Below are positions 6,970 to 28,754 of a stretch of DNA of 32,939 nt, one piece after another. The position numbers and the translations under genes were made by a program. Within the stretch, counting starts at the first letter, position 1, and each line of letters opens with the position of its first letter. The stretch lies in sequence record SRR20825006_20. One strand, written 5' to 3'. The notes beneath the pieces are model-generated. The model saw only the letters and a program-made list of their open reading frames with translations, was not told where the DNA came from and searched no databases.

Positions 6970-7512
6970 ATGAAAAAAACCATACTCCTTTTTACGCTTC
7001 TTCTTGCAATTATTTCTTGTAAAGACACCCCTAAAGAAACTGCGCAAGCTGCGCCTGTTTCTTTGGATGCTACTTACTATTTAATTCGACACGCTGATAA
7101 AATGCGAGGCCCTGATGCAGGTTCTGATCCTGAATTAAACGACGCCGGAAAACAACGTGCAAAATTTTGGGCTGAAGAATTAAGTGATGTGGACTTTGAT
7201 GCGGTGTACAGCACCGATTATAAGCGTACCCTAGCCACTGCTCAGCCAACTGCAGAAGCACAAGCGTTAAACGTTAAATTATATGATCCTACGCATTTAT
7301 ATGATGCCGAGTTTCAGCAAGAAACTGCGGGAAAAACGGTATTGGTCGTGGGTCACAGCAATACGACTCCCGCTTTTGTGAATGCTATTCTTGGCGAAAA
7401 CAAATATGACGAGATCGACGACGCTCTGTATGGATATTTATATGTCGTAACCATCAAAAATGGAAGCGCCCAAGTAGAGCTCAAAGATTTTAATGACTGG
7501 TCCGCAGAATAG
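6970..7512 (+). CDS. Histidine phosphatase (phosphoglycerate mutase/SixA-like) lipoprotein
   Basis: Lipobox AIISC, catalytic LIRHA, YSTDYKRT, LVVGHSNT motifs. Confidence 0.85.
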   Translation: MKKTILLFTLLLAIISCKDTPKETAQAAPVSLDATYYLIRHADKMRGPDAGSDPELNDAGKQRAKFWAEELSDVDFDAVYSTDYKRTLATAQPTAEAQALNVKLYDPTHLYDAEFQQETAGKTVLVVGHSNTTPAFVNAILGENKYDEIDDALYGYLYVVTIKNGSAQVELKDFNDWSAE

Positions 7513-7553
7513 CTTTTATCAAGCCTGAAAATTCGTGTTAAGCCCTGCGAATA

Positions 7554-8288
7554 TCATTTGACAGTTACATCTTCTAATTCTATTTTAGAAAGCAAGCTTA
7601 AGCTTCCGGCTGTATATAAGCTATCTAAAGATTGTAACGGCGGAAACTTTTCGGCAGGCTCATAATTGTTATAATCTGCAAAACGTATTCCTTCAACTTC
7701 TCTAATGTTATACGCTTCGCGAAAACGCGTTCCGCCCTCATTTACGTGATAGTTATATGCTAAATAATCTACGGTAAAATCTGTTTTATTGATCCAGTAC
7801 ATATAGGTGTCTTCAAAATCTTCTCCGCCACCTTCTTCGCTAAAAGTTACTTGAACCTCATAATAATGTTTCCCTTTAATAGTAGCCTCACCCATCAATT
7901 GTGGTTTTACCGCTTTGGCATCTAATCCATAAGGTAAAACCGAAAAATAATGAACAGAATTAACACCTCCTGATAATGAAGCGACTAGGCTATCAGAAAG
8001 CGTAACTTCCTGTTTATCAACAAAACGCTTAAAATCGGCATTGGTCAACTGATCTAGGGTATCATTACAAGCAGCATCTGTGCAACGCTCCAACTGAAAC
8101 CTTCCGTTGTTTCTATCTGCTCTATAAAACTTATCTCTAAATTGAAAGGCGATCAAAGAGGTGTCAATCGTTGCGCCACCACTGGTTTCAATAGCTTTTG
8201 CAATTATGCTTTCGGCATTAAGATTTTCAGCAGTTTCACCACACGAAATAATAAATAAGGCTATAGCACCTAGGAGTAATGTTCTCAT
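7554..8288 (-). CDS. Bacteroidota lipoprotein, DUF6503-like
   Basis: Lipobox FIISC; NSVHYF..LPYGL, VTF..EGGGEDFED.YMYWI, DYLAY.Y...GG.RFR, GIRF.DYNNY motifs as recalled for DUF6503. ATG at 8288 preferred over the TTG at 8291. Confidence 0.7.
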   Translation of the reverse strand: MRTLLLGAIALFIISCGETAENLNAESIIAKAIETSGGATIDTSLIAFQFRDKFYRADRNNGRFQLERCTDAACNDTLDQLTNADFKRFVDKQEVTLSDSLVASLSGGVNSVHYFSVLPYGLDAKAVKPQLMGEATIKGKHYYEVQVTFSEEGGGEDFEDTYMYWINKTDFTVDYLAYNYHVNEGGTRFREAYNIREVEGIRFADYNNYEPAEKFPPLQSLDSLYTAGSLSLLSKIELEDVTVK

Positions 8289-8304
8289 CAAATAAATTTT
8301 AAAA

Positions 8305-8312
8305 CAAAATTA
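8305..8312 (-). promoter_or_regulatory. -7 element (TAATTTTG on - strand) for the DUF6503-like gene
   Basis: CAAAATTA on the + strand is an exact TAnnTTTG on the - strand, 16 nt upstream of the ATG at 8288. Confidence 0.5.
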
Positions 8313-8351
8313 AAGTAATTTAAAGCAATAGAACGCCCAATAAGAAATTAG

Positions 8352-8359
8352 TACTTTTG
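8352..8359 (+). promoter_or_regulatory. -7 element (TACTTTTG) for smpB
   Basis: Exact TAnnTTTG 38 nt upstream of the smpB ATG. Confidence 0.55.
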
Positions 8360-8397
8360 TACAGCATAAGCGATAAGCTTACAAGGCAAAAAAATCT

Positions 8398-8862
8398 ATG
8401 AAGCAAGCAAATACAATTAATATAAAAAACAAGAAGGCTCGGTTTGAATACGAGATTTTTGATAAATATACCGCCGGAATAAAACTCGCAGGAACCGAAA
8501 TTAAATCTATTAGAGAAGGAAAAGCGTCTATTGCCGAAAGTTTTTGTGAGTTTCAAGAAGATGAACTTTTTGTGATCAATATGACTATTCAAGAGTATTC
8601 TCACGCGACCTATTTTAATCACAATCCTAAGAGCAGTCGTAAACTTTTACTCAACAGGCGTGAGTTAAATAAATTGCATAAAGAAGTGCGCAATAGCGGT
8701 CTTACGATCGTCCCGCTCAGGCTTTTTATCAACGACCGCGGTCTTGCAAAAATGCAAATCGCCTTAGCTAAAGGTAAAAAATTGTATGACAAGCGGGAGA
8801 CCATTAAGGAGCGCGATACTAAAAAACGATTAGGGCAGATCAAGAAAGCATTTAATAATTAA
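8398..8862 (+). CDS. smpB: SsrA-binding protein
   Basis: NKKARFEY, AGIKLAGTEIKSIR, RKLLL, LAKGKKLYDKRETIK motifs. Confidence 0.97.
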   Translation: MKQANTINIKNKKARFEYEIFDKYTAGIKLAGTEIKSIREGKASIAESFCEFQEDELFVINMTIQEYSHATYFNHNPKSSRKLLLNRRELNKLHKEVRNSGLTIVPLRLFINDRGLAKMQIALAKGKKLYDKRETIKERDTKKRLGQIKKAFNN

Positions 8863-9005
8863 TGCAACAGGCTTAAAGTAGTTGAAGTCTTTATTAGCAC
8901 CACCAAAGGATTTAATACTCTGAGGCTTGCCTGAAAATTGAAATATTGTTTCCTAAAAGTGGTTTGGGCTTTTACCCCAAGAATTATTTACTTGAAACTT
9001 CTTTT

Positions 9006-11465
9006 ATGAAACAAAAGCTACTTCTTTTTCTACTTACCCTAAGCACATTAACCGGAACTGCACAAATCACCGGTTTGGTTAGCAATACCGATGGCGAACC
9101 ACTCCCTTATGTAAATATTTACCAGAAAAATGCGGCTACCGGTACAACTTCTAATGGCGACGGCAATTATGAACTCGCTATAGCAAAGCCCGGGAATTAC
9201 ACTGTCGTTTTTCAGTTTTTAGGATTTCAGACTAAAGAGGTTGAAGTTAGTATAATCTCTTTTCCGTTTGAGCTGAATGTCACCTTGCAGGAAGAAACCA
9301 CCTCACTAGATGAAGTTTTTGTAGATGCTACCGGCAATCCCGCCAATAGGATCATTCAAGCTGTACTTGAACAAAAACCATTAATTTTAGATAAACAGAA
9401 AGCATATACGGCAGATTTCTATTCCAGAGGTTTATGGCGCGTAGAAAATGCACCTGAAAAATTCTTAGGTCAAGAAATTGGAGATCTTGGCGGCGGACTG
9501 GACTCAACCCGAACGGGTATTGTTTATCTCAGCGAAACCATCTCAAAAATCGCTTATCAAGCTCCAGATGATTTTGATGAAACCATCACCGCAAGCAAAG
9601 TAAGCGGAAATGACAACGGTTTTAGTTTTAACAGCGCTCAAGAAGCTGATTATTCCTTTTATGAAAATACGTTAGAGATCAATGCGCAACTCATTTCGCC
9701 ACTGGCTGACAATGCCTTTAATTATTACAACTATAAACTTCTAGGCGCGTTTAAAGAAGGTAATAAACTCATCAACAAAATTGCCGTTACCCCAAAACGA
9801 GAGAACGATCGAGTATTTTCTGGCGTAATTTATATTGTAGAAGATGACTGGCAACTTTATGGTGCAGAACTCACGACAACAGGTAAAGCCATTCAAGTGC
9901 CTTTTGTAGAATCTTTGGTGTTTAAACACAATTTTAAATACGATTCGCAAACCGATTTATGGGTGAAAATTTCACAGAACATTGAATTCAGTTTTAAACT
10001 TCTGGGGTTTGGCGGAAATGGTCGCTTTACCGCAGTTTATAGCAATTATGATTTTGAGCCGCAATTTGAGCGTTCTTCTTTTTCTAATGAGGTGCTGCGT
10101 TTTGAGCCTGAAGCCAATAAGAAAGACAGTTTATTCTGGCAACAAATACGACCGGTACCGCTAACTCTTGAAGAGCGTGCAGATTATCAACTTAAAGATA
10201 GTATTCAAGAAAAACGCAATTCAAAACCCTATAAAGACTCTGTAGATGCAGTATCTAATACCTTTGGGATTTTAGATCCTCTATTAGGTTATAGCTATAC
10301 CAATAGTTTTGAGCGCTGGCGCATAGGTTACAGCGGGCCCGCTTCTACGCTTAATTTCAATACCGTTCAAGGTTTTAATGCAACAGCAGGTTTATTTTAT
10401 AACACTTGGACCGAAGAATATAATCAAGCTACCTATGCCAGTCTTGATGCAAATTATGGTCTGGACGATGATCGCCTGCGTTTTACAGGAAATATTGCAA
10501 AGCGTTTTAATAAAATTAATAAACGCACGCTTGGTATTACGGGTGGAACAAAGGTGCAACAGTTCAATGCGCAAGAGCCCATTTCTAAATTGGTAAATAG
10601 CATTTCTACCCTCTTCTGGGAACGTAACTATATGAAGCTTTATGAACTCGATTTTGCTCGAGTTTACTATAGTGAAGAGCTTTTTAATGGCTTTCAATTT
10701 TATGCCAACGCTGCGTACGAAAAACGTAGTCCGCTTTTTAATACAACAAATCAAGTTTGGATTAAGAATTCGGTGGTCTATACATCAAACAATCCGCTAG
10801 CGCCGCTAGATTTTGACACAGCTGCAATTGTGCCACACGAGTTGGCTAAATTTAATGCCAGAGCGGTCATTCATTTTGATCAAAAATATATGAGTTATCC
10901 TGACGGAAAGTTCAATGTGAGCGAGTCAAAATACCCTACGCTAACCCTAAATTTTGAGCAAGCTTTTGCAGCATCAGATCCCGGTTTTAATTTTACTCAG
11001 ATTGCTGCGCAGTTGAAGCAAGAATTAGACATCGGCAACAAGGGAAATTTAGGTTATACTCTGCACGGCGGAACCTTTTTACAAGGTGATGATATTAGTT
11101 TTGTAGATTATCAACATTTTCAAGGAAATCAAACACGAATACAAATGCAAGGGAGACACTTAGATGGTTTTAACCTGCTCCCCTACTACGATTTTAGTAC
11201 TAACAACAGCTATTTTGAAGGACACGTTGAGCATAATTTTAAAGGTTTTATTTTGGGCAAAATTCCCGGAATACGTAGTTTAAATGCTAATTTAATTCTT
11301 GGTGCGCATTCCTTAATTACCCAAGAGCAAAAACCGTACTATGAATTTTCAGCAGGGATTGGTAATCTAGGTTTTGGTAAATTTAAATTTTTACGAGTAG
11401 ATTATGTACGATCAATTAATGGCCCTAATCAAGACGGAGCATTCGTCTTCGGCCTAAGCTTTTAA
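9006..11465 (+). CDS. Outer-membrane protein with carboxypeptidase-regulatory-like N-domain (DUF5686-type)
   Basis: Signal peptide from the ATG at 9006 (MKQKLLLFLL...TAQ), GEPLPYVNI...GTTSNGDGNY...FQFLGF N-domain, beta-rich body, C-terminal Phe (FGLSF). The TTG start at 8946 in the track is probably too far upstream. Confidence 0.75.
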   Translation: MKQKLLLFLLTLSTLTGTAQITGLVSNTDGEPLPYVNIYQKNAATGTTSNGDGNYELAIAKPGNYTVVFQFLGFQTKEVEVSIISFPFELNVTLQEETTSLDEVFVDATGNPANRIIQAVLEQKPLILDKQKAYTADFYSRGLWRVENAPEKFLGQEIGDLGGGLDSTRTGIVYLSETISKIAYQAPDDFDETITASKVSGNDNGFSFNSAQEADYSFYENTLEINAQLISPLADNAFNYYNYKLLGAFKEGNKLINKIAVTPKRENDRVFSGVIYIVEDDWQLYGAELTTTGKAIQVPFVESLVFKHNFKYDSQTDLWVKISQNIEFSFKLLGFGGNGRFTAVYSNYDFEPQFERSSFSNEVLRFEPEANKKDSLFWQQIRPVPLTLEERADYQLKDSIQEKRNSKPYKDSVDAVSNTFGILDPLLGYSYTNSFERWRIGYSGPASTLNFNTVQGFNATAGLFYNTWTEEYNQATYASLDANYGLDDDRLRFTGNIAKRFNKINKRTLGITGGTKVQQFNAQEPISKLVNSISTLFWERNYMKLYELDFARVYYSEELFNGFQFYANAAYEKRSPLFNTTNQVWIKNSVVYTSNNPLAPLDFDTAAIVPHELAKFNARAVIHFDQKYMSYPDGKFNVSESKYPTLTLNFEQAFAASDPGFNFTQIAAQLKQELDIGNKGNLGYTLHGGTFLQGDDISFVDYQHFQGNQTRIQMQGRHLDGFNLLPYYDFSTNNSYFEGHVEHNFKGFILGKIPGIRSLNANLILGAHSLITQEQKPYYEFSAGIGNLGFGKFKFLRVDYVRSINGPNQDGAFVFGLSF

Positions 11466-11483: not shown

Positions 11484-11873
11484 ATGAGCAAGGGTTTACT
11501 ACTATTTTTTTCTACAATGCTACTCGTGAGCTGCGTCAAAGACAAAAGTATCGCTGTAACTCAGATAGATGGCTTTCCTCCTGAAATTATGGGGTGTAGT
11601 TGCTATTATGCGGTAGATGAAGCGCATTTTCAAAAACAGCAATTTATTTATATTGATAGTTATGAAACTACTCCTGCTTACATCAGTATAAATAATTCTT
11701 TAATTGCTGTTGACCCAAAAAATGAACAAAATTCTAAATATACCTTAGACTTTGAAATTGAGGAAGAAATTCAACTAGATCAAGAACGCTATCATAGGGA
11801 AGGAACTCTTAAAATAACTGACAAAAATGGAGCAGTTTACAGTACTTCAATATATGGAGAATGCGGTTGTTAA
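11484..11873 (+). CDS. Hypothetical lipoprotein with CSC and C-terminal CGC motifs
   Basis: Lipobox LLVSC; GCSCYY and terminal GECGC. Confidence 0.7.
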   Translation: MSKGLLLFFSTMLLVSCVKDKSIAVTQIDGFPPEIMGCSCYYAVDEAHFQKQQFIYIDSYETTPAYISINNSLIAVDPKNEQNSKYTLDFEIEEEIQLDQERYHREGTLKITDKNGAVYSTSIYGECGC

Positions 11874-11885
11874 ACGAACTTATTT

Positions 11886-12401
11886 ATGGCTGAAAAACTA
11901 CAACAACCCGAAGTTTGGCTAAGAGGTTCTCTTAAAGATCTGCCTGTACTACTACAGCCTGCAGCATTTGCTCTAATGCAAACCAATGAAGAATTACCGT
12001 TTTGGTTGAAAGATTTCCCAAAAGAAAAATTATGGGTCAAACCGGCAGGAAGAGCTTCCGTAGGATTTCACCTCAAGCATTTAAGCGGCGTCTTAGATAG
12101 AATGCTTACGTATGCCAAAGAAGAACCCTTATCTTCTGAACAATTTGCGTACCTCAAAGCAGAGGAAGCGATTAAAACTGATCTCTCTGTTGAACAACTA
12201 ATAGAGATTTTTACTGCAAAGGTTGAAGAAGCCCTTACTTATTTTAAAACATTAGAAGAGCACCAGCTAACGGAGCCTCGATCTGTAGGAAGAAAAAAAT
12301 TACCATCCACTTTAATTGGATTATTATTTCACGCTGCTGAACACAGTCAGCGCCATTTAGGTCAGCTTATCGCAACGGCAAGTTTTGTAAAAACGCTTTA
12401 A
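11886..12401 (+). CDS. DinB/YfiT-like metal-binding protein
   Basis: SVGFHLKHL and HAAEHSQRHLGQ histidine motifs of the DinB superfamily. Confidence 0.82.
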   Translation: MAEKLQQPEVWLRGSLKDLPVLLQPAAFALMQTNEELPFWLKDFPKEKLWVKPAGRASVGFHLKHLSGVLDRMLTYAKEEPLSSEQFAYLKAEEAIKTDLSVEQLIEIFTAKVEEALTYFKTLEEHQLTEPRSVGRKKLPSTLIGLLFHAAEHSQRHLGQLIATASFVKTL

Positions 12402-13051
12402 TTCCCATTAGAAACAATCTTATTTTTCAAAGCGTATAGCACAAGACCTATTCTACTGCGTACCTCAAGCTTTTTAAAAAGCGTGTCTCTGTAATTGTCG
12501 ATAGTTTTAGGACTTAGGCACATTTCGCTCGCAATTTCCTTATAGGTTTTATCAGAACAGGCAAGCTCCATAAACTCTAATTCTCTACTTGAAAAATTTT
12601 CGAGGAGTGTATCTTGTTCTTTCTTAGAAACACCTTTAAGTAAAGCAGTAGTTACATTATCAGTGTAGTAGTGACCGCGTTCTATCACTTGGTTGAGCGC
12701 AAGATTAAGTGTTTCTGGGTGAATATCTTTCAGCAAATAGCCTTTGCTTCCTGCTTTTAGCATTTTAATGATGGTTTCTTCATCATCATCCATAGAAAGC
12801 GTTATGGTTTTAATTTCCGGTTTGTGCTCATTTAGCCAAGAAATAGTCTCAAAACCATTCATTATAGGCATATTAATATCTAAGAGTAGAATATCAGGTT
12901 CTTTATCGCAGGTACTGAGTTTATTAATCAAGTCGTTACCATTACGTGCCATAAAAGCCACCTCAAAACCATTAAAACTATTGATGAGCCCTTGTAGGGA
13001 TTGTGCAAAAAGAACGTGATCATCAACGACTCCTACAACATGGTTTTTCAT
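12398..13051 (-). CDS. NarL/FixJ (LuxR-HTH) response regulator
   Basis: Receiver VVDDH, LLDINMP (phospho-Asp), LSM, GYLLK; C-terminal FSSRELEF...TYKEIASEMCLSPKTIDNYR..LFKKL HTH. Confidence 0.93.
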   Translation of the reverse strand: MKNHVVGVVDDHVLFAQSLQGLINSFNGFEVAFMARNGNDLINKLSTCDKEPDILLLDINMPIMNGFETISWLNEHKPEIKTITLSMDDDEETIIKMLKAGSKGYLLKDIHPETLNLALNQVIERGHYYTDNVTTALLKGVSKKEQDTLLENFSSRELEFMELACSDKTYKEIASEMCLSPKTIDNYRDTLFKKLEVRSRIGLVLYALKNKIVSNGN

Positions 13052-13110
13052 GGAAATAGTAAAATTTGTGGTTAGTTTTAAGTGCGTTAAAGGTAATTAT
13101 AATAAATAAA

Positions 13111-13899
13111 TTAAACCTTTATGTATTTGATTTTAAGACGTGTACCCTTGTTTTTAGTTGAATTAAGCTCAAACTCTGCTCTGATCATTTGTGCCCGAGT
13201 ATGCATATTTAGTAGCCCAGAACCCTGAGATGTTACACTTTGATCAAAGCCAATCCCATCATCTTGGGCTAAAATTTCTAAGAAATCATCCTTAAAGAGC
13301 ATCATAACCTCTAGAGAAGAGGCTTTCGCGTGTTTGATCACATTACTGAGAAATTCTTGCACGATCCTAAATAAAATGATGGTATCATCTTTAGGTATTG
13401 AAAATGGCGCTCCTTGAATAGTAAATGTTGTATTTAAAAATTTAAGTCGTTCTAGGCGGTTAAGTTCATTTTTTATACTCTCTTGAAGACCGATGTGTGT
13501 AATAATATCGTTGTTCAGGTTTTTAGATAAGGCCCTTATCTCACTTAAAGATTTGCCTAACAGTTTTGTAATTTCGATAAGCTCTGGTTCTTTTTCTAAA
13601 TGATTATTTGCGCCAAAGATCTTCAACTCCAAATTAGCTACAGAAATTAGCTGACCAATATTATCGTGCAATTCGCGACCCACATTCTTTAAGGTTTCTT
13701 CTTGAATTTCGACCTGAGTACGCGCAACTTCTTCTTGATATCTTAAAATAGCTTCATTGCGCTGATTGATGAACTTGATCTTGCGCTTTTGAAATACTGA
13801 AAAAAGAATAATGATAATCATCAAAAAGGCAAGAAGCACTAAAGAACATACTATAATAAGTAGTTCAAAAGAGCCTAAAATGTTATCATCAAAAGACAT
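13111..13899 (-). CDS. HisKA_3-type histidine kinase with a single TM helix and no sensory domain
   Basis: One N-terminal hydrophobic helix, H-box RELHDNIGQ, N-box FRIVQEFLSNVIKHA, DDGIGF and GSGLLNM G-boxes; 262 aa. Confidence 0.92.
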   Translation of the reverse strand: MSFDDNILGSFELLIIVCSLVLLAFLMIIIILFSVFQKRKIKFINQRNEAILRYQEEVARTQVEIQEETLKNVGRELHDNIGQLISVANLELKIFGANNHLEKEPELIEITKLLGKSLSEIRALSKNLNNDIITHIGLQESIKNELNRLERLKFLNTTFTIQGAPFSIPKDDTIILFRIVQEFLSNVIKHAKASSLEVMMLFKDDFLEILAQDDGIGFDQSVTSQGSGLLNMHTRAQMIRAEFELNSTKNKGTRLKIKYIKV

Positions 13900-13911
13900 A
13901 CAAGAAGCAAG

Positions 13912-14574
13912 TTAGCTTTTTTTTGCTATTGGATGCTCCATTTTATAGCGATCAGATTTTATAAACGCAATTGCGATGCAACAATATTGAATACAATTAA
14001 TGAGAAAGAGAACCACACTCAGAATAACCGGATTTTCTTGTAAAAAGAACATTAAAGTAATGTAAAAAGGCAAATAGGTCACACAATAGGTCAAAATACC
14101 AAAACTCACCCAGAAATATGGTGATTGCGTAATGTTAAGCACAACTTCTCGCGTGAGCATTTCGATAAAATAAAAAGCTACAGCAATTATGAGCAATAGT
14201 GTACCTAAAGAAAAGGTGATGGACAGGTAATTATCAGTTATAGAGCCTATTGTCAACGCTTCGCCAAACCAAAACACGATATACACTAAAAAGAAAAACT
14301 TAAGTATTTGCGCTTTTACGGTCGAAACAATTAGCGAATGAAACCAAGCTAAAAAAAAGGAAAAATGAATTAGAATATAGATATTATATAAAAAGGTATT
14401 GGGGATGTTCAATACTTCATATGAAATACCCGCTAAAAACTCATTGGCCACCACATAGATCAAAAAGTAAAAGACATATTTAAAGTAAAAATCTTTAAAT
14501 TCTTTATACTTTATAATACCTATGATCAGAGCAATAAGTTCTAAGTATTGAGAATACGAACTCAAATCTTCCAT
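13912..14574 (-). CDS. Hypothetical polytopic membrane protein (about 6-7 TM), candidate receptor subunit
   Basis: 220 aa, almost entirely hydrophobic/aromatic helices; 12-nt gaps to both neighbours imply co-transcription. Confidence 0.8.
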   Translation of the reverse strand: MEDLSSYSQYLELIALIIGIIKYKEFKDFYFKYVFYFLIYVVANEFLAGISYEVLNIPNTFLYNIYILIHFSFFLAWFHSLIVSTVKAQILKFFFLVYIVFWFGEALTIGSITDNYLSITFSLGTLLLIIAVAFYFIEMLTREVVLNITQSPYFWVSFGILTYCVTYLPFYITLMFFLQENPVILSVVLFLINCIQYCCIAIAFIKSDRYKMEHPIAKKS

Positions 14575-14586
14575 TAAACCTGTTTT

Positions 14587-15075
14587 CTATTGGTACGTGC
14601 CTGGAGGTGGTTTTCTTAAATGTCCCATATTTAATGGAGGGACTTCAAGATCCTCTTCTTCCTCTTGAAAATTAATACTAAAAACAGCCGCTTCATTAGA
14701 AGCTGCTTTATATCCGGTTGGGACAATAAATAAAGTTGAGTATCCGGAAACTTCAGCATTGTGGTAATCCTTAGGATAAGCTCCATAATACACGCGTAAG
14801 CCGTTTACATTATATCCTTTTTCCTTCGCTACACTTTTTGCATAAGCGATATAGGCTTCTAGATCATCTACAGACCACCAACTTGATCGACTATCAGGCA
14901 TACCAATAGCTTTGTTTATGGCATCCGCACGAGTTTCGGTAAATGTGCGATCTAAAATCTTTGCTTCTTCTATTGAAATAACTCCTTTAGGAGGTTTTGC
15001 AGTATTGTATTGTTCTGTACAACCTAAAAATAATACGGTTACAAAACCGCATATAAAAACTTTAAAACACCTCAT
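14587..15075 (-). CDS. Hypothetical lipoprotein, first gene of the signalling cassette
   Basis: ATG at 15075 gives MRCFKVFICGFVTVLFLGC (lipobox, Cys19); core SSWWSVDDL...GLRVYYGAYP...TLFIVPT; acidic linker then PLNMGHLRKPPPGTYQ tail. The GTG start at 15099 in the track is less likely. Confidence 0.75.
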   Translation of the reverse strand: MRCFKVFICGFVTVLFLGCTEQYNTAKPPKGVISIEEAKILDRTFTETRADAINKAIGMPDSRSSWWSVDDLEAYIAYAKSVAKEKGYNVNGLRVYYGAYPKDYHNAEVSGYSTLFIVPTGYKAASNEAAVFSINFQEEEEDLEVPPLNMGHLRKPPPGTYQ

Positions 15076-15147
15076 AATAGTATTGATTTTATGATTCACA
15101 GTCTAAAGTACTGCATTTGCTAACAAATAGATTATCAGCAAGTTAAA

Positions 15148-15166
15148 TAGGGGGAAATTCCCCGTA
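15148..15166. promoter_or_regulatory. GC-rich palindrome, candidate response-regulator binding site
   Basis: TA-G-GGGGAA-A-TTCCCC-G-TA: perfect 6-bp arms (15151-15163) extendable with one mismatch, in the AT-rich divergent intergenic region. Confidence 0.5.
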
Positions 15167-15229
15167 CAGTAAAGGGAATAAGCTGAATTAAAAAAGGGTC
15201 AATGACGCAATGGCTTTCGGGATTTTAAC

Positions 15230-15244
15230 TACTGAATATCAGTA
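15230..15244. promoter_or_regulatory. Second palindrome TACTGA-ATA-TCAGTA just upstream of the eCIS -7 box
   Basis: Perfect 6-bp inverted repeat ending 11 nt before the -7 box. Confidence 0.4.
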
Positions 15245-15255
15245 ATTTATATATT

Positions 15256-15263
15256 TAAATTTG
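15256..15263 (+). promoter_or_regulatory. -7 element (TAAATTTG) of the eCIS operon promoter
   Basis: Exact TAnnTTTG 29 nt upstream of the ATG at 15293. Confidence 0.6.
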
Positions 15264-15292
15264 AATAACAAAAAATCTAAACTCTCCAACCC

Positions 15293-15895
15293 ATGCTCTA
15301 TGAATCCCTCGAAATATTACGAGAGCAAGTCGAAATCTATTTAGAAGAAATGGATTTAGGCACTAATTTGGTGACTTTAGATTCCATTGCGCATTTTATT
15401 GATAAGCCCAATAGAGATAATCAACCTTTAGATAATAAAGTAGTTGTCTCGCTGCTGAATCTTCAAGAAGAGGTGACGCTCAAAAATCAACGCAACTATA
15501 CGGTTCAATCTGGCAAACCTGTATATAAAAATACTCCGGTATTTGTAAATGCCTACATTCTGTTTACCTGCAACCGTCTGGAGTATGCGTTTTCCTTACG
15601 GTCTCTTGCGGCAATACTTCAGTTTTTTCAAGGGAAAAATAGTTTCAATCATAAAAACACATTCTTTTCTAGAAATACGCAAGTAATGCAAGCCGTAAAA
15701 GAATTTCAATTTACGGTTGAGCTTTACACACCTTCCTTTGAAGAACTCAATTATATCTGGAGCATGCATGGCGGTAAGGCTTATCCTGCGGCTATCTACA
15801 AACTCAATATTTTGAGCTTAGAGCGTCAACATGTACTAGATGAAGGCGCTTTACTCACACAGGTTAATACCAATTTTAAACACCTAACATCGTGA
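15293..15895 (+). CDS. eCIS cap/tail terminator protein (DUF4255, Pvc16/Afp16-like)
   Basis: VVVSLLNLQEE..LKN, P.FVNAYILF, SL..L..ILQFFQ, ELYTPSFEELNYIWS..GGKAYP..IYK pattern; first gene of the cluster. Confidence 0.85.
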   Translation: MLYESLEILREQVEIYLEEMDLGTNLVTLDSIAHFIDKPNRDNQPLDNKVVVSLLNLQEEVTLKNQRNYTVQSGKPVYKNTPVFVNAYILFTCNRLEYAFSLRSLAAILQFFQGKNSFNHKNTFFSRNTQVMQAVKEFQFTVELYTPSFEELNYIWSMHGGKAYPAAIYKLNILSLERQHVLDEGALLTQVNTNFKHLTS

Positions 15896-16743
15896 GCACC
15901 ATTACCACATATCGGCCATTATTTCAACTGGATATTTTCCATAAGTTCTTTTTAGATGACGGAGTCACACCTTTTGACTCCAATGAAACAATTCTTAAAA
16001 AACAACTTCAAAAATATAACTGGAATTCCTTCGGGAAAATAGTTCCTACTGCTGAGACAAAAGTAAACCTACAGAATCACAGAATGTTGCTCAAACCAAG
16101 TCCTTTAGGCTTTGTGGTTTTGGTTGAAGCTGAACTTTTAAATGATACCGCTCCTAATCACACACCATTAATTGCTTTAGATCAAGACCTAAAGCTTGAT
16201 TTTTATATTCAGCTCTTAGACCCGCAATTTTATAATTACACAGACCTTGATCCAGCTTTTGACCGTCCGCTTTTCCTAAGTAATCATGCCACGCTTTACA
16301 ATGCTGCCGCACCCGTTTATTTAGCCAGACATAATGAAGAATCAAATGCTAAAAATCATTCGGTTTCCGAAGCTTTTAAAGACTTTCTCATTAAGAAATA
16401 TGGTGACATTCGAACCGAAAAACCTTTTATAATCTCCTTAAAAATGCGTGATGCGGGTTCGGGCTTAAATCTGGTTTTATTAAATGGAACGCTTCCACAG
16501 CATACACCGCATTTTAAAATTGTATTTCATAATCGAAAAACCATTTGGCGCTATTATTCAGTAGCGACAAAGGTTCTGATATACACTACAGAACCTGAAG
16601 AAAAACCTCTAGTACAGCATGGGATTGTCCCTATAAGCAATGCGGGTACTGACTACCCTACTCCTACTCCTTCTAGAATTTATCAAGACCGTGATACAGA
16701 CGGTTCGCTCATCAAAACATATTCTAACATTTATATTAATTAA
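15892..16743 (+). CDS. eCIS accessory protein, probable cap adaptor (Alg16B-like by position)
   Basis: GTGA overlap with the cap gene; lies between cap and sheath; YRPLF...HKFFLD and F.NRKTIWRYY...P.P.P motifs. Function inferred from gene order. Confidence 0.55.
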   Translation: MSTITTYRPLFQLDIFHKFFLDDGVTPFDSNETILKKQLQKYNWNSFGKIVPTAETKVNLQNHRMLLKPSPLGFVVLVEAELLNDTAPNHTPLIALDQDLKLDFYIQLLDPQFYNYTDLDPAFDRPLFLSNHATLYNAAAPVYLARHNEESNAKNHSVSEAFKDFLIKKYGDIRTEKPFIISLKMRDAGSGLNLVLLNGTLPQHTPHFKIVFHNRKTIWRYYSVATKVLIYTTEPEEKPLVQHGIVPISNAGTDYPTPTPSRIYQDRDTDGSLIKTYSNIYIN

Positions 16744-16755
16744 ACACTTTCTATT

Positions 16756-18714
16756 ATGGCATCATCGTATAAAACGCCCGGAGTATATGTAGAAGAAATA
16801 TCAGTATTTCCTCCTTCGGTAGCGCAGGTTGAGACCGCTATTCCCGCATTTATAGGGTATACTAATAAAGTTTCTCATAAAACTGAACAAGATTTGCTTT
16901 TGACACCTAAGAAAATAGGCTCTATGTTAGAGTTTGTTTCCCTTTATGGAGGTGCACCCGAAGCAAATATTAACGATATTCAGTTAACAGCATCAAAATC
17001 AGTTGCTTCATTTACTATAGAAGACACGTATTATTTATATGATGCGTTGAGACTTTTCTATGCAAATGGTGGCGGTGATTGCTATATCGTAAGTGTAGGT
17101 AAATGCGGTGAAGATAGTATCGCATTAACAGCTTTGGAAAATGGCTTAGCCAGAATCGCAAAGGTAGATGAACCTACTATTTTAGTTTCTCCCGATGCCT
17201 GTTTATTAGATCAAGATAAATTAGACTCCTTTAATCAAGCTTTACTGAAACAATGCGGGAAATTAGGCGATCGCTTTGCCCTATTAGGTATTAAAAATGA
17301 TAACGAAAATCTCGAGGTAGATATAAATGCTTTTAGAAATGGCGTGGGTATGAACAGCCTAAAATATGGAGCAGCCTACACGCCTTGGTTAAAAGCAAAT
17401 TTGCCGCGAACGGTGCATTATAAAAGCTTAAAAGGAAAAATAAGTTTAGGAGGCATATCGATTAACTTGGCCGACTTGATTCAAGATGCAGATGCCAAAA
17501 GTCTTGCTAATCAACTTGATGAACTCATAGATGACAGCGCACTCATAACAGATAAACTGAATGACCTTGCCGACTCTAGTTCCTCGGTTGATAATCAATA
17601 TCAAGAGTTGCTTACTACGGTCACAACAAGTTCATCTATTGGAAACCTTGTTAGTCTCCTTCAGTTCTATGCCGATGCAATTGATTTTATACGAGATATT
17701 GTTGAAGTGGGAACCGATAATTATAAATTGAAACACACTTCAGCAACGGCTCCTGACCAAGCCTTACAACCGCATTTAAATTTGGTATTTAATACAAGTT
17801 TGACTAGTGGCAGTATACATTCCATCACAGAGACGATTTCAGACATTCTTGCTGATTTTAATGCTGAATATGATCCTGACCGTACTGTAACTTCTACCAC
17901 AGGTGTAGATTATGGTAGTGGCGGCATCGGAACCTATTTCCAAGGAGGTGAAACACAAACTTTTTACATAGCAGAATTATTACCTACAGTGAGCGCTTTC
18001 TACACTGAAATTAAATCGGCATTAGACTATATCAGCAGCACTACGGCAAATTATTTAAGCACCTACGAAACCGCCGCAACCGAAATGATTCCGGCTCTAA
18101 AATCAATCAAAAATGCGATTGCAGGAGAATACATCGTACTACCACCTGGTGCAGCAATCGCAGGAGTTTATGCACGAACAGATGCTAACCGCGGTGTATG
18201 GAAAGCTCCAGCCAACACTTCTTTAAATAGTGTTGTGGGTGTGACACACCTTATAGATCACGACGATCAGCAAGGCTTGAATGTAGATACCGTTGCCGGA
18301 AAATCTATAAATGCTATTAGACCCTTTACCGGAAAAGGTATTATGGTTTGGGGTGCACGTACCCTTGCCGGTAATGATAATGAATGGCGTTATGTTCCTG
18401 TACGTCGCTTTTTCAATATGGTTGAAGAATCGGTTAAAAAAGCAACTGAACAGTTTGTTTTTGAAAGTAACGACGCAAACACTTGGGTTAAAGTACGCGC
18501 GATGATCGAAAACTTTTTAAATCTTCAATGGCGTGCCGGAGCTCTAGCCGGAGCAAAACCTAACGACGCTTTTTATGTTCGTGTAGGGCTTGGAGAAACG
18601 ATGACCGCCGAAGATATCTTAAATGGTATTATGGCGATCGAAATTGGTGTGGCAGTAGTACGACCTGCAGAATTCATCATCCTGAAATTCTCTCATAAAA
18701 TGCAGGAATCATAA
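16756..18714 (+). CDS. Contractile tail sheath protein
   Basis: YKTPGVYVEE, TAIPAFIGYT, FYANGGG.CYIVSVG, LPP..AIAGVYARTD..RGVWKAPAN, VWGARTL, WRYVPVRR, FVFESND, AVVRPAEFIILKF. Confidence 0.96.
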   Translation: MASSYKTPGVYVEEISVFPPSVAQVETAIPAFIGYTNKVSHKTEQDLLLTPKKIGSMLEFVSLYGGAPEANINDIQLTASKSVASFTIEDTYYLYDALRLFYANGGGDCYIVSVGKCGEDSIALTALENGLARIAKVDEPTILVSPDACLLDQDKLDSFNQALLKQCGKLGDRFALLGIKNDNENLEVDINAFRNGVGMNSLKYGAAYTPWLKANLPRTVHYKSLKGKISLGGISINLADLIQDADAKSLANQLDELIDDSALITDKLNDLADSSSSVDNQYQELLTTVTTSSSIGNLVSLLQFYADAIDFIRDIVEVGTDNYKLKHTSATAPDQALQPHLNLVFNTSLTSGSIHSITETISDILADFNAEYDPDRTVTSTTGVDYGSGGIGTYFQGGETQTFYIAELLPTVSAFYTEIKSALDYISSTTANYLSTYETAATEMIPALKSIKNAIAGEYIVLPPGAAIAGVYARTDANRGVWKAPANTSLNSVVGVTHLIDHDDQQGLNVDTVAGKSINAIRPFTGKGIMVWGARTLAGNDNEWRYVPVRRFFNMVEESVKKATEQFVFESNDANTWVKVRAMIENFLNLQWRAGALAGAKPNDAFYVRVGLGETMTAEDILNGIMAIEIGVAVVRPAEFIILKFSHKMQES

Positions 18715-18753
18715 AAAACAATCATCTAATCCTAGTAATTAAAAATCGTAAAA

Positions 18754-19191
18754 ATGGCAGCAATATATCCTTTAGCAAAATTTCATTTCCTCGTTGATTG
18801 GGGCGGAACAAATGTAGGTTTTACAGAAGTCTCCGGTCTTGATGTGGAAATTGAACCTATAGAATATAGACACGGAGCAAGCCCGGAATACAGCAAAACT
18901 AAAATGCCGGGAATGCAAAAATACAGCAACATCACGATGAAACGTGGTACCTTCTTGGCTGACAATGAATACTTCGCTTGGTGGAACAGTGTAAAACTCA
19001 ACACCATCGAACGGCGTGACATTACCATAAGTCTCCTAAATGAAGAGCACGCGCCTGTTGTTGTTTGGAAAGTCAAAAATGCATTTCCTATAAAAGTACA
19101 GTCAACAGATTTGAAATCTGACGCCAATGAAGTGGCTATAGAATCAATAGAGATTGTGCACGAAGGGCTTGAAATTCAAAACGGAGCATAA
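18754..19191 (+). CDS. Tail tube protein (T4 gp19-like, Afp1-like)
   Basis: YPLAKFHF.V, GFTEVSGL, IEYRHG, KMPG..KYSNITMKRG, RRDITISLLNE, VAIESIEIVHEG. Confidence 0.95.
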   Translation: MAAIYPLAKFHFLVDWGGTNVGFTEVSGLDVEIEPIEYRHGASPEYSKTKMPGMQKYSNITMKRGTFLADNEYFAWWNSVKLNTIERRDITISLLNEEHAPVVVWKVKNAFPIKVQSTDLKSDANEVAIESIEIVHEGLEIQNGA

Positions 19192-19625
19192 TGGCAGACT
19201 ACTATCCACCGGTTGGTTTTCACTTTAAAGTTGAATTTGGTGCGGTTTCTCCTGAAATCGATCATCAGTTTCAATCTGTGAGCGGACTTTCAGTAGATAT
19301 AGAAACGGAAGAGTATGCCGAAGGTGGAGAAAATAGGTTTAAGCACAAATTACCCGTTCGTACCAAGTTTCCTAATCTGGTCCTAAAACGCGGACTCGTA
19401 AGTGATTCGAAACTTATTAAATGGTGCAAAGACGCTGTAGAAAATTTTGATTTCAGTCCTACAGATGTAACGATCAAACTTTTGAATAATGAACACGAAC
19501 CTCTGGTGACCTGGAATGTAGTTCACGCGTATCCCGTAAAATGGTCAGTTTCAGATTTTAATGCAGAGCAGAACAGCATCGCTGTAGAAACCATAGAACT
19601 AGCGTATAACTATTTTAAATCTTGA
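19191..19625 (+). CDS. Second tail tube protein (Afp5-like)
   Basis: YYPPVGFHFKV, FQSVSGL, EGGENRF.HKLP, NLVLKRGL, AYPVKWSVSDFNA, VETIELAY; TAATG stop-start overlap with tube 1. Confidence 0.93.
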   Translation: MADYYPPVGFHFKVEFGAVSPEIDHQFQSVSGLSVDIETEEYAEGGENRFKHKLPVRTKFPNLVLKRGLVSDSKLIKWCKDAVENFDFSPTDVTIKLLNNEHEPLVTWNVVHAYPVKWSVSDFNAEQNSIAVETIELAYNYFKS

Positions 19626-19627
19626 TT

Positions 19628-19789
19628 ATGCCCATTGAAATTAAAGAATTGCATATCAAAATAAATGTTAGCGATAACGCCAACTCTACCGCTGCGACTT
19701 CGACAACCTCTTCTGCTAAAAAAGAAAAACTCATCGAAGCATGCATAGAACAAGTTATGCGTATTCAAGAACGAAAAAATGAACGATAA
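19628..19789 (+). CDS. Small eCIS protein, 53 aa (DUF5908 / Afp6-Alg6 plug-like); absent from the ORF track
   Basis: Read manually: MPIEIKELHIKINVSDNANSTAATSTTSSAKKEKLIEACIEQVMRIQERKNER*. Starts 2 nt after tube 2; its TAA abuts the next ATG at 19790. Confidence 0.85.
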   Translation: MPIEIKELHIKINVSDNANSTAATSTTSSAKKEKLIEACIEQVMRIQERKNER

Positions 19790-20485
19790 ATGGCCTTAGG
19801 AGAACTTTTTAAATTGAAGATCACCGCTTTTCGCGATATAAAATATAGCGAAAAAGTAGCTGATGGAGTTTTTACATCTCTGCTTAATCCAGAAAAATAC
19901 ACGCTGGCGTACAAAATTGAATACAATGATGATCAGGCTGCAGGGTCTAGTGGCAATGATCCCAGATTTGAAAAAATGCCACCAAAAGATCTTGATCTAG
20001 AATTTTTGTTTGATCGTACAGGCATAATTGCTCACAATCAAAATCAAGATAAAGACGCCGGAGTGGTCGATGATATTCAGCAATTTAAAGAAGTAGCATT
20101 TGAATATTCTGGGGATGAACATCGCCCTTATTATTTAGAAATCCGTTGGGGGAGTCTGCTTTTTAAAGGGATTTTAATTGAGATGAATATCGAATATAAA
20201 CTTTTTAATCCGCAAGGAACTCCGTTAAGAGCAGTCATCAAAGCCAAGTTTAAAGAAACAGTAGACCCTGAATTACGTTTGGCAGACGAAAACCGAAATT
20301 CACCAGATCTCACGCACATACGTATTGTAGAATCGGGAGATACGCTTCCGTTGATGGCCTTTCGCATTTATGGCGATTCCAAATACTATTTGCAAGTGGC
20401 TCAGGCAAACGGGATCACCAATTTTAGAACACTTAAACCCGGTCAGAAGATATTCTTCCCTCCTATTATAGAAAAAACCATTTGA
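19790..20485 (+). CDS. Tube initiator/hub protein with C-terminal LysM (Afp7-like)
   Basis: NPEKYT, FLFDRTG, WGSLLFKG, YKLFNPQGTPLRA, then SPDLTH.RIV.SGDTLPLMA..IYGD..YYLQVA.ANGI.NFR.LKPG LysM. Confidence 0.9.
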   Translation: MALGELFKLKITAFRDIKYSEKVADGVFTSLLNPEKYTLAYKIEYNDDQAAGSSGNDPRFEKMPPKDLDLEFLFDRTGIIAHNQNQDKDAGVVDDIQQFKEVAFEYSGDEHRPYYLEIRWGSLLFKGILIEMNIEYKLFNPQGTPLRAVIKAKFKETVDPELRLADENRNSPDLTHIRIVESGDTLPLMAFRIYGDSKYYLQVAQANGITNFRTLKPGQKIFFPPIIEKTI

Positions 20486-20497
20486 TGCATTAGTCAT

Positions 20498-22231
20498 ATG
20501 AACACTGCTACCGCACTAAATACAGGAATAGTTAGCTATAAGCTTTTGATCAATGGCACTGATAAAAGTGCTTCATTCTCGATCAAGTCTATGGTAATTC
20601 ATCACGAAGTTAATCGTATTCCTTATGCATCGATTATTCTGGTAGATGGTGATGTTTCTACCGGGACTTTTGCGGTCAGCTCTTCAGAAGATTTAATTCC
20701 GGGCAGCGAATTAGAAATCCAAGCGGGCTATGAAAATGATAATGTAAGCTTATTTACAGGTAAAGTTATTCGGCATAGTATAAAAATAAGAGAGTCTGTT
20801 TCTATGCTTGTCGTTGAGTGTAAACACGAGGCAGTTAAGCTTACCGTTGGCCCTAAAAGCACCTACTTTTATGATAGTTCTGATAGTGATATTATTGAAA
20901 GCATTCTTGGTAATGCAGGCATTAATGCATCGGTAGAGCAATCAAATTATAACCACCCTCAGCTTATTCAATATCAAACTACCGATTGGGACTTTATCGT
21001 ACTACGCGCTCAAATAAACGGATTTTTATGTTTTCTTGAAGGAAACACTATTGAATTCAAGAAGCCTGATCTTTCTACCGAAGCTGTAATCACGTTAGAA
21101 TACGGACTTAACATCTATGATTTTGACGGTGAAATAGACGCCCGAAATGCACTGAAAACCATCACATCCTATACTTGGAACAGCGGTGATCAAGAAGTAA
21201 TCGAAAAAGAAGCAAGTACATCTAACGCTTTAGAATTGGGAAATCTAACCCAAATAGATCTCGCTGAAATAGTAGATCTTGAAAATTTTAAACTCAACCA
21301 CGGCGGAAGTCTAACAGAAGAAGAACTTCAGGATTGGGCCGATGCTAAACTGCAACTTCATCTGTTGTCGCTTAATCGAGGGCGTATAAAAATTCAAGGG
21401 AATGCTTCGGTAAAACCGGGAATGAACGTAATTCTTAAAGGATTAGGCGATCGTTTTAATGGCAAAGCATACATTACCGCGGTACATCACGAGATCGCTA
21501 ATGGAAACTGGTTCACAAATCTTCAGTATGGCTTGAGTCCGCAATGGTTTAGTGAAACTTTTGAAGTAAATGCACAGCCGGCTTCTGGTATTATTCCGGC
21601 AATAAGCGGTTTACAAATTGGCAAAGTCACCCAATTACAGGATGATCCTGAGGGTGCCGAACGTGTTTTGGTCAAGATTCCAATCATCAACAATGCCGAA
21701 GAAGGGATTTGGGCACGTATTGCACTACTAGATGCCGGCTTAGATCGCGGATCCCTATTCCGCCCCGAGATCGATGACGAAGTTATACTAGGATTTATCA
21801 ATGACGATCCCAACGACGCTGTTATACTAGGCGCTTTACATAGTAGTATTAACACTGCACCAATCGAGGCAGCCGATGAGAATAATGAAAAAGGATTTTT
21901 TACGCGTAGCGGAATTCAATTTTTATTCAACGATGAAAAAAAATCAGTTTCCATCACCACACCAGGAGGTCGAAGCATAATCATCAATGATGACGACGAG
22001 GAAATTCATGTTGATGACAATGGCACTAGTAGTGTCAGCCTCACCAGTGACGGAATCGCTCTAGACAGCAGCGGTGCTATAACTATACAGGCTAAAGGCG
22101 ACCTTAATCTTGAGGGACAAAACATAAGCATAAAAGCACAACAAGAATTAAAAGCCGAAGGCGCAGCAGGAGCAGAATTATCAACCTCAGCCATCGCCGT
22201 TTTAAAAGGATCATTAGTTCAAATAAATTAA
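20498..22231 (+). CDS. VgrG-like spike protein (Afp8-like)
   Basis: VNRIP.A, QYQTTDWDF...RA..NG, GLQIGKVT, DP....RV.V, WARIA, FRPEIDDEVILGFINDDP...VILG OB-fold, beta-helix tail ending KGSLVQIN. Confidence 0.92.
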   Translation: MNTATALNTGIVSYKLLINGTDKSASFSIKSMVIHHEVNRIPYASIILVDGDVSTGTFAVSSSEDLIPGSELEIQAGYENDNVSLFTGKVIRHSIKIRESVSMLVVECKHEAVKLTVGPKSTYFYDSSDSDIIESILGNAGINASVEQSNYNHPQLIQYQTTDWDFIVLRAQINGFLCFLEGNTIEFKKPDLSTEAVITLEYGLNIYDFDGEIDARNALKTITSYTWNSGDQEVIEKEASTSNALELGNLTQIDLAEIVDLENFKLNHGGSLTEEELQDWADAKLQLHLLSLNRGRIKIQGNASVKPGMNVILKGLGDRFNGKAYITAVHHEIANGNWFTNLQYGLSPQWFSETFEVNAQPASGIIPAISGLQIGKVTQLQDDPEGAERVLVKIPIINNAEEGIWARIALLDAGLDRGSLFRPEIDDEVILGFINDDPNDAVILGALHSSINTAPIEAADENNEKGFFTRSGIQFLFNDEKKSVSITTPGGRSIIINDDDEEIHVDDNGTSSVSLTSDGIALDSSGAITIQAKGDLNLEGQNISIKAQQELKAEGAAGAELSTSAIAVLKGSLVQIN

Positions 22232-22235
22232 ACCT

Positions 22236-22535
22236 ATGCCACTTGCAGCAAGACTTAACGATATGCATACCTGCCCGATGCAAACGCCGGGAACGCCACC
22301 TGTTCCGCACGTGGGCGGGCCTATAATTGGGCCGGGAGAGCCTACCGTGCTTATTGAAGGAGTGCCGGCAGCTCGCGTTGGCGACAATGCAGTTTGTGTA
22401 GGGCCACCTGATGTAATCGCTTCTGGGTCTACAAGTGTTTTAATTGGCGGAATGCCGGCAGCACGTATGGGAGATTCAACGGCACACGGCGGAACAATTT
22501 CTATAGGAGCTCCAACTGTTGATATTGGCGGTTAA
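22236..22535 (+). CDS. PAAR-repeat spike tip protein
   Basis: LAARLNDMHTCP, PHVGGPI, PAARVGD, PAARMGDSTAHGG. Confidence 0.96.
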   Translation: MPLAARLNDMHTCPMQTPGTPPVPHVGGPIIGPGEPTVLIEGVPAARVGDNAVCVGPPDVIASGSTSVLIGGMPAARMGDSTAHGGTISIGAPTVDIGG

Positions 22536-22547
22536 AAATAGTGAATT

Positions 22548-22961: not shown

Positions 22962-22963
22962 TT

Positions 22964-28743: not shown

Positions 28744-28754
28744 AATATACGGCT

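Follow-up and report, generated by a model that had tools for sequence, protein, structure and literature searches.

A four-gene operon with a stand-alone seven-transmembrane protein and a sensor-less histidine kinase in a Leeuwenhoekiella-like flavobacterium

Four co-oriented genes and their products

The DNA stretch of 32,939 nucleotides from sequence record SRR20825006_20, which is called the window hereafter, carries a cassette of four co-oriented genes on the minus strand. In the order of transcription, they encode a lipoprotein of 162 amino acids (14587..15075, with an ATG start and a GTG at 15099 as the alternative start), a stand-alone seven-transmembrane (7-TM) protein of 220 amino acids (13912..14574), a sensor-less histidine kinase of 262 amino acids (13111..13899) and a NarL/FixJ-type response regulator of 217 amino acids (12398..13051). 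The open reading frames confirm the intergenic gaps of 12, 12 and 59 nucleotides given in a preliminary description of this locus. The nearest genome (G001) contains an orthologous locus, whose proteins are 98-99% identical to those of the window, and the source names of the homologs point to Leeuwenhoekiella of the Flavobacteriaceae. The four genes are a self-contained signalling operon of a Leeuwenhoekiella-like (marine) flavobacterium. Metatranscriptomic contigs from three studies align with portions of each of the four genes (90-99% identity), and one of them (14433-14810) spans the junction of the lipoprotein and 7-TM genes; it should be noted that such libraries can hold DNA and that the contigs give no transcript ends.

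The kinase and the regulator belong to the NarL/FixJ class of two-component systems, with the combination of HisKA_3 and GerE. The Pfam scores of the kinase are 30.4 bits for HisKA_3 (cut-off 24) and 33.5 bits for HATPase_c (cut-off 26.4), and the phosphoacceptor His78 is located in the HisKA_3 dimerisation/phosphoacceptor domain. Hydropathy analysis reveals one hydrophobic segment, residues 13-31. Since this is the single transmembrane segment and only about 10 residues precede it, the kinase has no input domain, in agreement with what had been noticed earlier. The same holds for the 28 aligned cassette kinases, which are about 255-275 amino acids long, contain one transmembrane helix and have no input domain; H78, D79, N186, D213, G215 and G217 are invariant among them, the latter four representing the N box and the D-x-G-x-G box. 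The best NCBIfam matches of the kinase are UhpB (E 5.5e-27) and LiaS (4.5e-20), followed by MctS and NarX, all of which are far below the cut-offs. The regulator is above the Pfam cut-offs for both Response_reg (82.9 bits, 2.4e-23) and the GerE helix-turn-helix (51 bits, 1.1e-13), and its best NCBIfam matches, MctR and NarL, are both below the cut-offs.

The protein encoded directly upstream of the kinase had been estimated to have about six or seven transmembrane helices. Based on an alignment of 121 sequences, AlphaFold2 modelled it with seven helices, at a mean predicted local distance difference test (pLDDT) of 93.1 and a predicted template modelling score (pTM) of 0.89. Its orientation is N-out/C-in, because nine lysine and arginine residues lie on the presumed cytoplasmic side and none outside. 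The conserved positions of the family are E45 in helix 2, Y63 and N64 in helix 3, G124 in helix 5, F154, W155, G159 and P169 in helix 6, and N193 and Y197 in helix 7. Among them, F154, W155 and G159 are almost invariant and form the pattern F-W-x3-G on helix 6. According to the model, the outer half of the bundle would hold the polar conserved residues, and the cytoplasmic end of helix 6 the F-W-x3-G pattern.

The 7-TM protein has no Pfam or NCBIfam family match. The 121 family members have no Pfam family in common, even at E<=1, and none of them matches 7TMR-DISM or 5TMR-LYT of Pfam. Among 1.84 billion cluster representatives, 328 belong to the family at E<=1e-3, and the best 150 of these 328 are all 70-262 amino acids long. 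For the structural model, Foldseek returned no match at E<=1e-3, and the best template modelling scores (TM-scores) were 0.53-0.58, to class C G protein-coupled receptors (GPCRs). With VIA-align, for which a Z of about 13 is advised as informative for helical bundles, the LYCHOS GPCR-like domain, Ste2 and adhesion GPCRs were matched at Z 11.7, with a root-mean-square deviation of 4.1-4.3 Å over 206-207 residues, and rhodopsins were matched at Z 9-10.7. As far as these structure searches of the model go, the protein is a generic seven-helix bundle.

One Atlas cluster neighbouring the 7-TM family has been named automatically as 'histidine kinase N-terminal 7TM region', and this name was not confirmed. 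PF16927 (HisKA_7TM) is over its cut-off in 0 of 41 genomes, and is not found in G001 despite four 7-TM family members there. Its matches elsewhere in the phylum are fused proteins of 425-1676 amino acids, present in 55 of 401 genomes, and the hhalign comparison of the 7-TM alignment with 14 true PF16927 domains gave a probability of 1.3%.

The product of the first gene is indeed a lipoprotein as judged by reading its sequence, as had been described, since an n-region and an h-region are followed by L-F-L-G-C with the lipobox cysteine Cys19. It has no Pfam or NCBIfam match, and is called family X here. There are 15 close homologs, which are listed as 'hypothetical protein' (Leeuwenhoekiella) where they are named at all. 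A lipobox is present in 11 of the 14 close homologs of the alignment (P0152-P0164), while P0162 and P0163 lack any signal, and the N-terminus of P0164 contains a hydrophobic segment with no clear lipobox. In the alignment of 38 X sequences, Y100 and P156 are invariant, the core G-x-R-x-Y-x-G-x-Y-P is conserved, and the C-terminal motif P-L-N-x-G-x4-P-P is the best-conserved part of the protein. In the AlphaFold2 model (mean pLDDT 85.8), a beta hairpin accompanies two helices, and the P-L-N stretch makes up a short strand; the latter (residues 141-150, pLDDT 93) is packed on the domain, and the last 12 residues are the sole uncertain region. Foldseek found no match to this fold at E<=1e-3, and the best VIA match reached Z 3.8; these searches identified no relative, by which a new fold is not yet proven. 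As modelled, X is a new small alpha/beta family.

Many X homologs are signal-less, with in-frame stop codons just upstream of their starts. In addition, the loci where no X was recognised by the profile nonetheless have a small gene 0-20 nucleotides upstream of the 7-TM gene, which belongs to no Pfam family. Fourteen such small proteins align mutually and match the X profile (hhalign 94.1%, E 1.2e-7). The signal-less remote homologs of loci L101-L141 end in P-C-P-x2-C-D-P-x-S-P-L-N, and the cysteines of this tail, which are absent from the lipoprotein forms, could serve in metal binding or redox sensing. A simple sequence rule, applied to 99 upstream proteins, assigned a lipobox to 26 of them and some other N-terminal hydrophobic segment to 15, and the remaining 58 had no signal. 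Where X is signal-less in genus g2 (L010-L018), the 7-TM protein keeps the N-out/C-in orientation, and in a second signal-less group (L024-L031, L035) its charges are about equal, with 5-6 inside vs. 4-6 outside, a bias too weak to indicate the topology. Because the 7-TM topology is not flipped in the signal-less g2 loci, X would act on different sides of the membrane, at least in some lineages, which argues against one fixed docking site as well as a secreted peptide signal.

Pairing of the 7-TM protein with the kinase

Using the profile of 121 members, the 7-TM family was found in 87 of 301 sampled genomes of the order, distributed over 5 of 18 families, and in 89 of 401 sampled genomes of the phylum, other classes included; one large family has none in 87 sampled genomes. 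There are 1-7 copies of the 7-TM gene per genome. To describe the genes around them, 110 loci (30 initial and 80 added) among the matches listed (about 150 listed, 25 unlisted) were surveyed, and the genes were labelled with profiles built from the alignments of this analysis itself. Note that these loci are related to each other and entered the survey through their 7-TM match, and consequently the counts stand for association, not for independent events.

The kinase gene directly follows the 7-TM gene in 107 of the 110 loci, the kinase being of the short HisKA_3 type in 106 of them and of the LytS type in one. The full order X-7TM-kinase-regulator occurs in 52 loci, and the conserved four-gene order, on which the preliminary description depended, thus exists in other genomes. 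Among the remaining loci, 34 have the arrangement 7TM-kinase-regulator, 14 have regulator-7TM-kinase, 4 have X-7TM-kinase and 1 has X-7TM-LytS-type kinase-LytTR regulator, and 5 are arranged otherwise or cut by a contig end. Overlap between the 7-TM and kinase frames was seen at 84 of 106 loci, the median being -22 nucleotides, where the kinase starts were chosen heuristically.

The four-gene order is also present at a paralogous locus of G001, which encodes a homologous lipoprotein, three tandem 7-TM paralogs, a one-transmembrane kinase of 252 amino acids and a NarL-type regulator. There are six HisKA_3 kinases in G001. The two short ones (frames of 261-266 amino acids) are exactly those beside the 7-TM genes, while the frames of the other four are 600-642 amino acids. 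The LytS-type variant (L022/L050, at 7736-10484 of G066:C3:325000-342000) combines the X/7-TM pair with a 265-amino-acid kinase of the His_kinase family PF06580 and a LytTR regulator. In view of this module swap, the X/7-TM pair looks like a portable input unit.

The pairing of the 7-TM protein with a sensor-less kinase is not due to chance, and it is widespread in Bacteroidota. The preliminary description had proposed a split receptor-kinase system that might be quorum-like. The adjacency in 107 of 110 loci, the overlapping frames, the exclusive association with the short kinases in G001 and the module swap support the split, whereas the quorum-like peptide part is not supported. As read from the sequences, the pairing probably divides receptor and kinase between two proteins. 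Complex prediction for kinase residues 1-130 together with the 7-TM protein, which was run without alignments, gave a score of 0.01 against a mark of 0.34, which speaks neither for nor against contact of the two.

Promoter, candidate operator and neighbouring genes

A 13-bp palindrome, GGGG-N5-CCCC, is located at 15151..15163, 88 nucleotides upstream of the lipoprotein ATG. It is the sole exact match in the window, and 2 matches are found with no more than one mismatch compared with 0.18 expected. The pattern GGG-N5-9-CCC is found in 14 of 26 related upstream regions, between -71 and -108 relative to the first gene. In 11 of these 14 related promoters, the C-run is followed immediately by TTG, with TAnnTTTG at +23/+24, and two loci have none by pattern. 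We take TTG and TAnnTTTG to be the -33 and -7 promoter elements of Bacteroidetes, respectively. In the window, a putative -7 box with one mismatch to TAnnTTTG lies on the minus strand (15124..15131), at +18 after the C-run of the palindrome. The predicted transcript start is close to 15117.

Since the palindrome abuts the -33 element, the layout fits an activating regulator dimer and putative autoregulation. The palindrome beside a Bacteroidetes-type promoter suggests that the operon is autoregulated, with the palindrome as candidate operator for the regulator. GGG-N5-8-CCC is found upstream of 23 of 107 cassettes vs. 1.3% of shuffled controls, and therefore the palindrome marks one subfamily. 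Two contigs from RNA libraries end at 15079 and 15097, just inside the predicted promoter, which is a weak hint only. In the spacer between the kinase and regulator genes (13052-13110, 59 nucleotides), which is AT-rich, a near-match to the -7 box can also be read, and the spacer may contain a candidate internal promoter for the regulator gene.

The exact 13-mer occurs twice in the 4 Mb of G001. One copy is at the orthologous locus, and the other is at L036 (G001:C5:105444-108456, positions 1501-1513), next to an acyltransferase gene (PF01553). On the other side of this second palindrome, positions 1559-1921 encode a two-transmembrane protein of 120 amino acids which belongs to no family, and the box TACATTTG faces this gene at +23 from the palindrome. 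Judging from this layout, the gene is a candidate member of the regulon in G001. No homolog of its product was found in the window or the fetched loci.

On the other side of the promoter region, the plus strand (15293-32939) is occupied by a PVC/Afp-like cluster of an extracellular contractile injection system (eCIS). Its genes encode Pvc16_N, a 652-amino-acid sheath, two T4 gp19-like tubes, CIS_tube, a spike with Phage_base_V, gp25 and Baseplate_J, as well as two large open reading frames (900 and >1395 amino acids) without Pfam family, the last of which runs off the window. No RNA run covered 15206-15598, from which one can conclude neither where a transcript starts nor that the eCIS is silent. 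At the opposite end of the cassette, a DinB_2-family gene on the plus strand (11886-12401) converges on the regulator gene (12398-13051), and their stop regions overlap by 4 nucleotides, so there is no space for a terminator between them. Further away, a protein of 839 amino acids with CarboxypepD_reg-like and DUF5686 domains (E 1.4e-254) is encoded at 8946-11465 on the plus strand, and a 129-amino-acid putative lipoprotein without family is encoded downstream of it (11484-11873). Among the 23 loci with 8-kb flanks, no flanking gene is conserved, so no output is revealed in this way.

Interpretation and comparison with known systems

Then, where does the signal of the sensor-less kinase come from? 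The explanation that we hold to be probable, with due reserve, is a two-component system that depends on a separate 7-TM protein for input, accompanied by a small auxiliary protein and subject to positive autoregulation. With one transmembrane helix and about 10 external residues, the kinase alone would be unable to sense outside the membrane. The 7-TM protein would be its input partner, which may perceive a membrane-borne or small-molecule cue in the helix bundle and would control the kinase by helix-helix or juxtamembrane contact. The kinase would phosphorylate the NarL-type regulator, which in turn would bind the GGGG-N5-CCCC palindrome at the promoter and activate its own operon, with the gene of the small membrane protein as a probable further target in the nearest genome. 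The first-gene product, here a lipoprotein, would modulate the 7-TM/kinase unit in an auxiliary role and would not be a ligand precursor. The occurrence of 1-7 copies per genome, including tandem 7-TM copies before one kinase, is as expected of diversifying sensors.

Several observations weigh against this explanation. The palindrome is found in only 23 of the 107 cassettes, and X exists as a lipoprotein, a membrane-anchored or a signal-less form, which is hard to square with a single binding face. The resemblance to GPCR-like bundles (Z 11.7) falls short of what is informative for helical bundles, and the surveyed loci are related and were drawn from the matches of one search. Natural fusions of the membrane protein with the kinase, for which the preliminary description had suggested a search, were sought and none was found: there is no fused 7-TM-kinase among the best 150 of the 328 representatives (<=262 amino acids), none among the 2769 candidates in a search of longer proteins, which is weak evidence, and the open frames listed from about 700 genomes are all <=290 amino acids. 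Finally, two loci, L051 (G201, 7252-9397) and L058 (G226, 8454-9947), carry a kinase-less X/7-TM pair, one of them with a tandem 7-TM copy, in the interval from rho to rpsT, and no short HisKA_3 kinase is found anywhere in the G201 and G226 genomes. Therefore, the X/7-TM pair can exist without this kinase.

Among the other explanations, a feedback modulator similar to SaePQ or LiaF is rather unlikely in our estimate. The kinase would then sense a membrane cue via its own transmembrane helix, and the 7-TM protein and X would be induced tuners that bind the kinase, acting for example as a phosphatase switch. The tight coupling of the 7-TM protein and the kinase fits such modulators equally well, and the operon is apparently autoregulated from a promoter ahead of the two auxiliary genes, as in saePQRS. 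However, a lone transmembrane helix with about 10 external residues makes a poor sensor, and the 7-TM protein is multiplied up to seven copies, even in tandem before one kinase, with its polar helix residues kept, which is more like diversifying receptors. Computation cannot decide between the sensor and the feedback-modulator role of the 7-TM protein. The first two genes might also be the output of the system, that is, induced effectors serving, e.g., membrane protection as liaIH does, instead of signal input. We regard this as improbable, although the candidate operator and promoter precede exactly these two genes, kinase-less X-7TM pairs occur in two genomes, and the gene of a small membrane protein likewise follows the second exact palindrome of the nearest genome. 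In this case, the sensor-less kinase would be left without any input. Moreover, the 7-TM gene stands between the regulator and the kinase in 14 loci and overlaps the kinase start in 84 of 106, positions that are typical of subunits of a signalling complex and not of cargo genes.

The divergent intergenic region shared with the eCIS cluster measures 217 nucleotides, and the palindrome is located 130 nucleotides upstream of the first eCIS gene (15293), so that the cassette could be a local regulator of the adjoining contractile injection system. There is little probability in this, since, of the 23 loci with 8-kb flanks, only the window and a relative 98% identical to it show the adjacency, and on the eCIS side no TAnnTTTG box can be read at the conserved spacing. 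Besides, such a role would be an addition to the input role of the 7-TM protein, not an alternative to it. The contractile injection system is probably a neighbour rather than a dedicated target. The least probable explanation is the peptide or quorum signal, in which the C-terminal tail of the lipoprotein would be processed to a peptide and sensed by the 7-TM receptor. It could draw on P-L-N-x-G...P-P being the best-conserved part of X, with the P-L-N end common to the remote signal-less homologs, on the low confidence of the last 12 residues, which could be free, and on the X-7TM pairs that occur even without the kinase. However, 58 of the 99 upstream proteins are signal-less, with in-frame stops upstream, and X cannot reach the outer face in the signal-less g2 loci, where the 7-TM protein is N-out/C-in. 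The tail motif is conserved across genera instead of being variable, unlike pheromones, and its P-L-N residues 141-150 are modelled as a strand of the domain (pLDDT 93). No peptidase, exporter or other transporter is encoded in the cassette or as a conserved neighbour in the 23 loci. The earlier suggestion that the lipoprotein supplies or processes a quorum-like ligand is not supported. The sensor and regulator types do not fit either: Agr/Com sensors are polytopic HPK10-type fusions that work with LytTR regulators, whereas the cassette has a one-transmembrane HisKA_3 kinase and a GerE regulator, LytTR being present in 1 of 110 loci.

The input role of the 7-TM protein may be extended to the whole family, and this extension is speculative, being possible but short of probable. 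The 7-TM proteins might constitute a large unannotated family of receptors with a GPCR-like fold in Bacteroidota, which would signal in trans, inside the membrane, to interchangeable sensor-less kinases (HisKA_3/NarL, occasionally LytS/LytTR), with X as partner whose conserved P-L-N tail engages the receptor. The design would be like that of sensory rhodopsin with Htr, and the up to seven copies per genome would be devoted to different cues. Sensor-less kinases pose the question of signal origin, and the studied answers, that is, LiaF, SaePQ, BceAB and UhpC, come from Firmicutes and enterobacteria, while the present cassette is found in about a fifth of the sampled Bacteroidota genomes, often in multiple copies. 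If the 7-TM protein is the receptor, it would represent a class of bacterial seven-helix receptors that is both new and abundant, provide a clean system for transmembrane signalling between separate proteins, and allow hundreds of 'hypothetical' gene pairs to be annotated in environmental and fish-pathogen flavobacteria. The layout of palindrome and promoter also offers a ready reporter for seeking the inducing cue. No description of the cassette was found in the literature covered, which excludes subscription journals and supplements.

Among the known systems, UhpABC of E. coli has a separate receptor, UhpC, that senses the ligand and controls the HisKA_3-type kinase UhpB, which acts on the NarL-type regulator UhpA. 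The separate polytopic receptor, the HisKA_3 kinase and the NarL regulator are shared with the cassette, and UhpB is the best NCBIfam match of the kinase core. However, UhpC is a 12-transmembrane homolog of major facilitator superfamily transporters, UhpB has an 8-transmembrane domain of its own, and no lipoprotein is involved. LiaFSR and VraTSR are similar to the cassette in the input-less HisKA_3 kinase, the upstream membrane accessory, the NarL regulator and the positive autoregulation, but neither LiaF nor VraT is a 7-TM protein, and these systems occur in Firmicutes and respond to cell-wall antibiotic cues. In sensory rhodopsin II/HtrII, as in the proposed mechanism, a stand-alone 7-TM receptor signals by helix contact to a separate transducer, which controls a histidine kinase. 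The differences are the sensing of light by retinal, a two-transmembrane transducer resembling methyl-accepting chemotaxis proteins, and CheA. The likeness is at fold level only. The kinase is also like the intramembrane-sensing kinases in having no extracytoplasmic input and an accessory membrane protein in the same operon (with a 12-nucleotide gap in the window and adjacency in 107 of 110 loci), but it contains one transmembrane helix, compared with two in the classical members.

A seven-helix bundle serves as kinase input in BtsS/LytS, 7TMR-DISM and HisKA_7TM (PF16927) proteins as well; for example, BtsS is described as a 7-TM receptor that binds pyruvate (PMC10653868), and one variant cassette even has the LytS-type catalytic core and the LytTR regulator. 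However, receptor and kinase are one polypeptide in these proteins and two here, and no homology is detectable. For saePQRS, the lipoprotein SaeP and the four-transmembrane SaeQ are reported to join the intramembrane-sensing SaeS in a ternary complex and to activate the phosphatase of SaeS (PMC5083920). According to the same source, SaePQRS resembles the cassette in comprising four genes, for a lipoprotein (SaeP, 146 amino acids), a polytopic protein, a kinase with nearly no exterior part and a regulator, and in the autoinduction from a promoter ahead of the two auxiliary genes (PMC5083920). They differ in the helices of the membrane protein (4 in SaeQ vs. 7 here), in the kinase (two transmembrane helices and HAMP in SaeS vs. 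one helix and HisKA_3 here), in the gene order P-Q-R-S and in the host, a Firmicute and not a Bacteroidete, and many X homologs here are not lipoproteins. The cassette proteins have no sequence relation to LiaF, VraT, SaeP or SaeQ as far as Pfam and NCBIfam profiles can judge. By these comparisons, the proposed mechanism resembles those of UhpABC, SaePQRS, LiaFSR/VraTSR and the sensory rhodopsin-transducer pair, and the cassette is a member of none of them by the sequence tests applied. The accessory-dependent sensor-less kinase is a kind already known, while the stand-alone 7-TM partner, the breadth within Bacteroidota and the X family are new.

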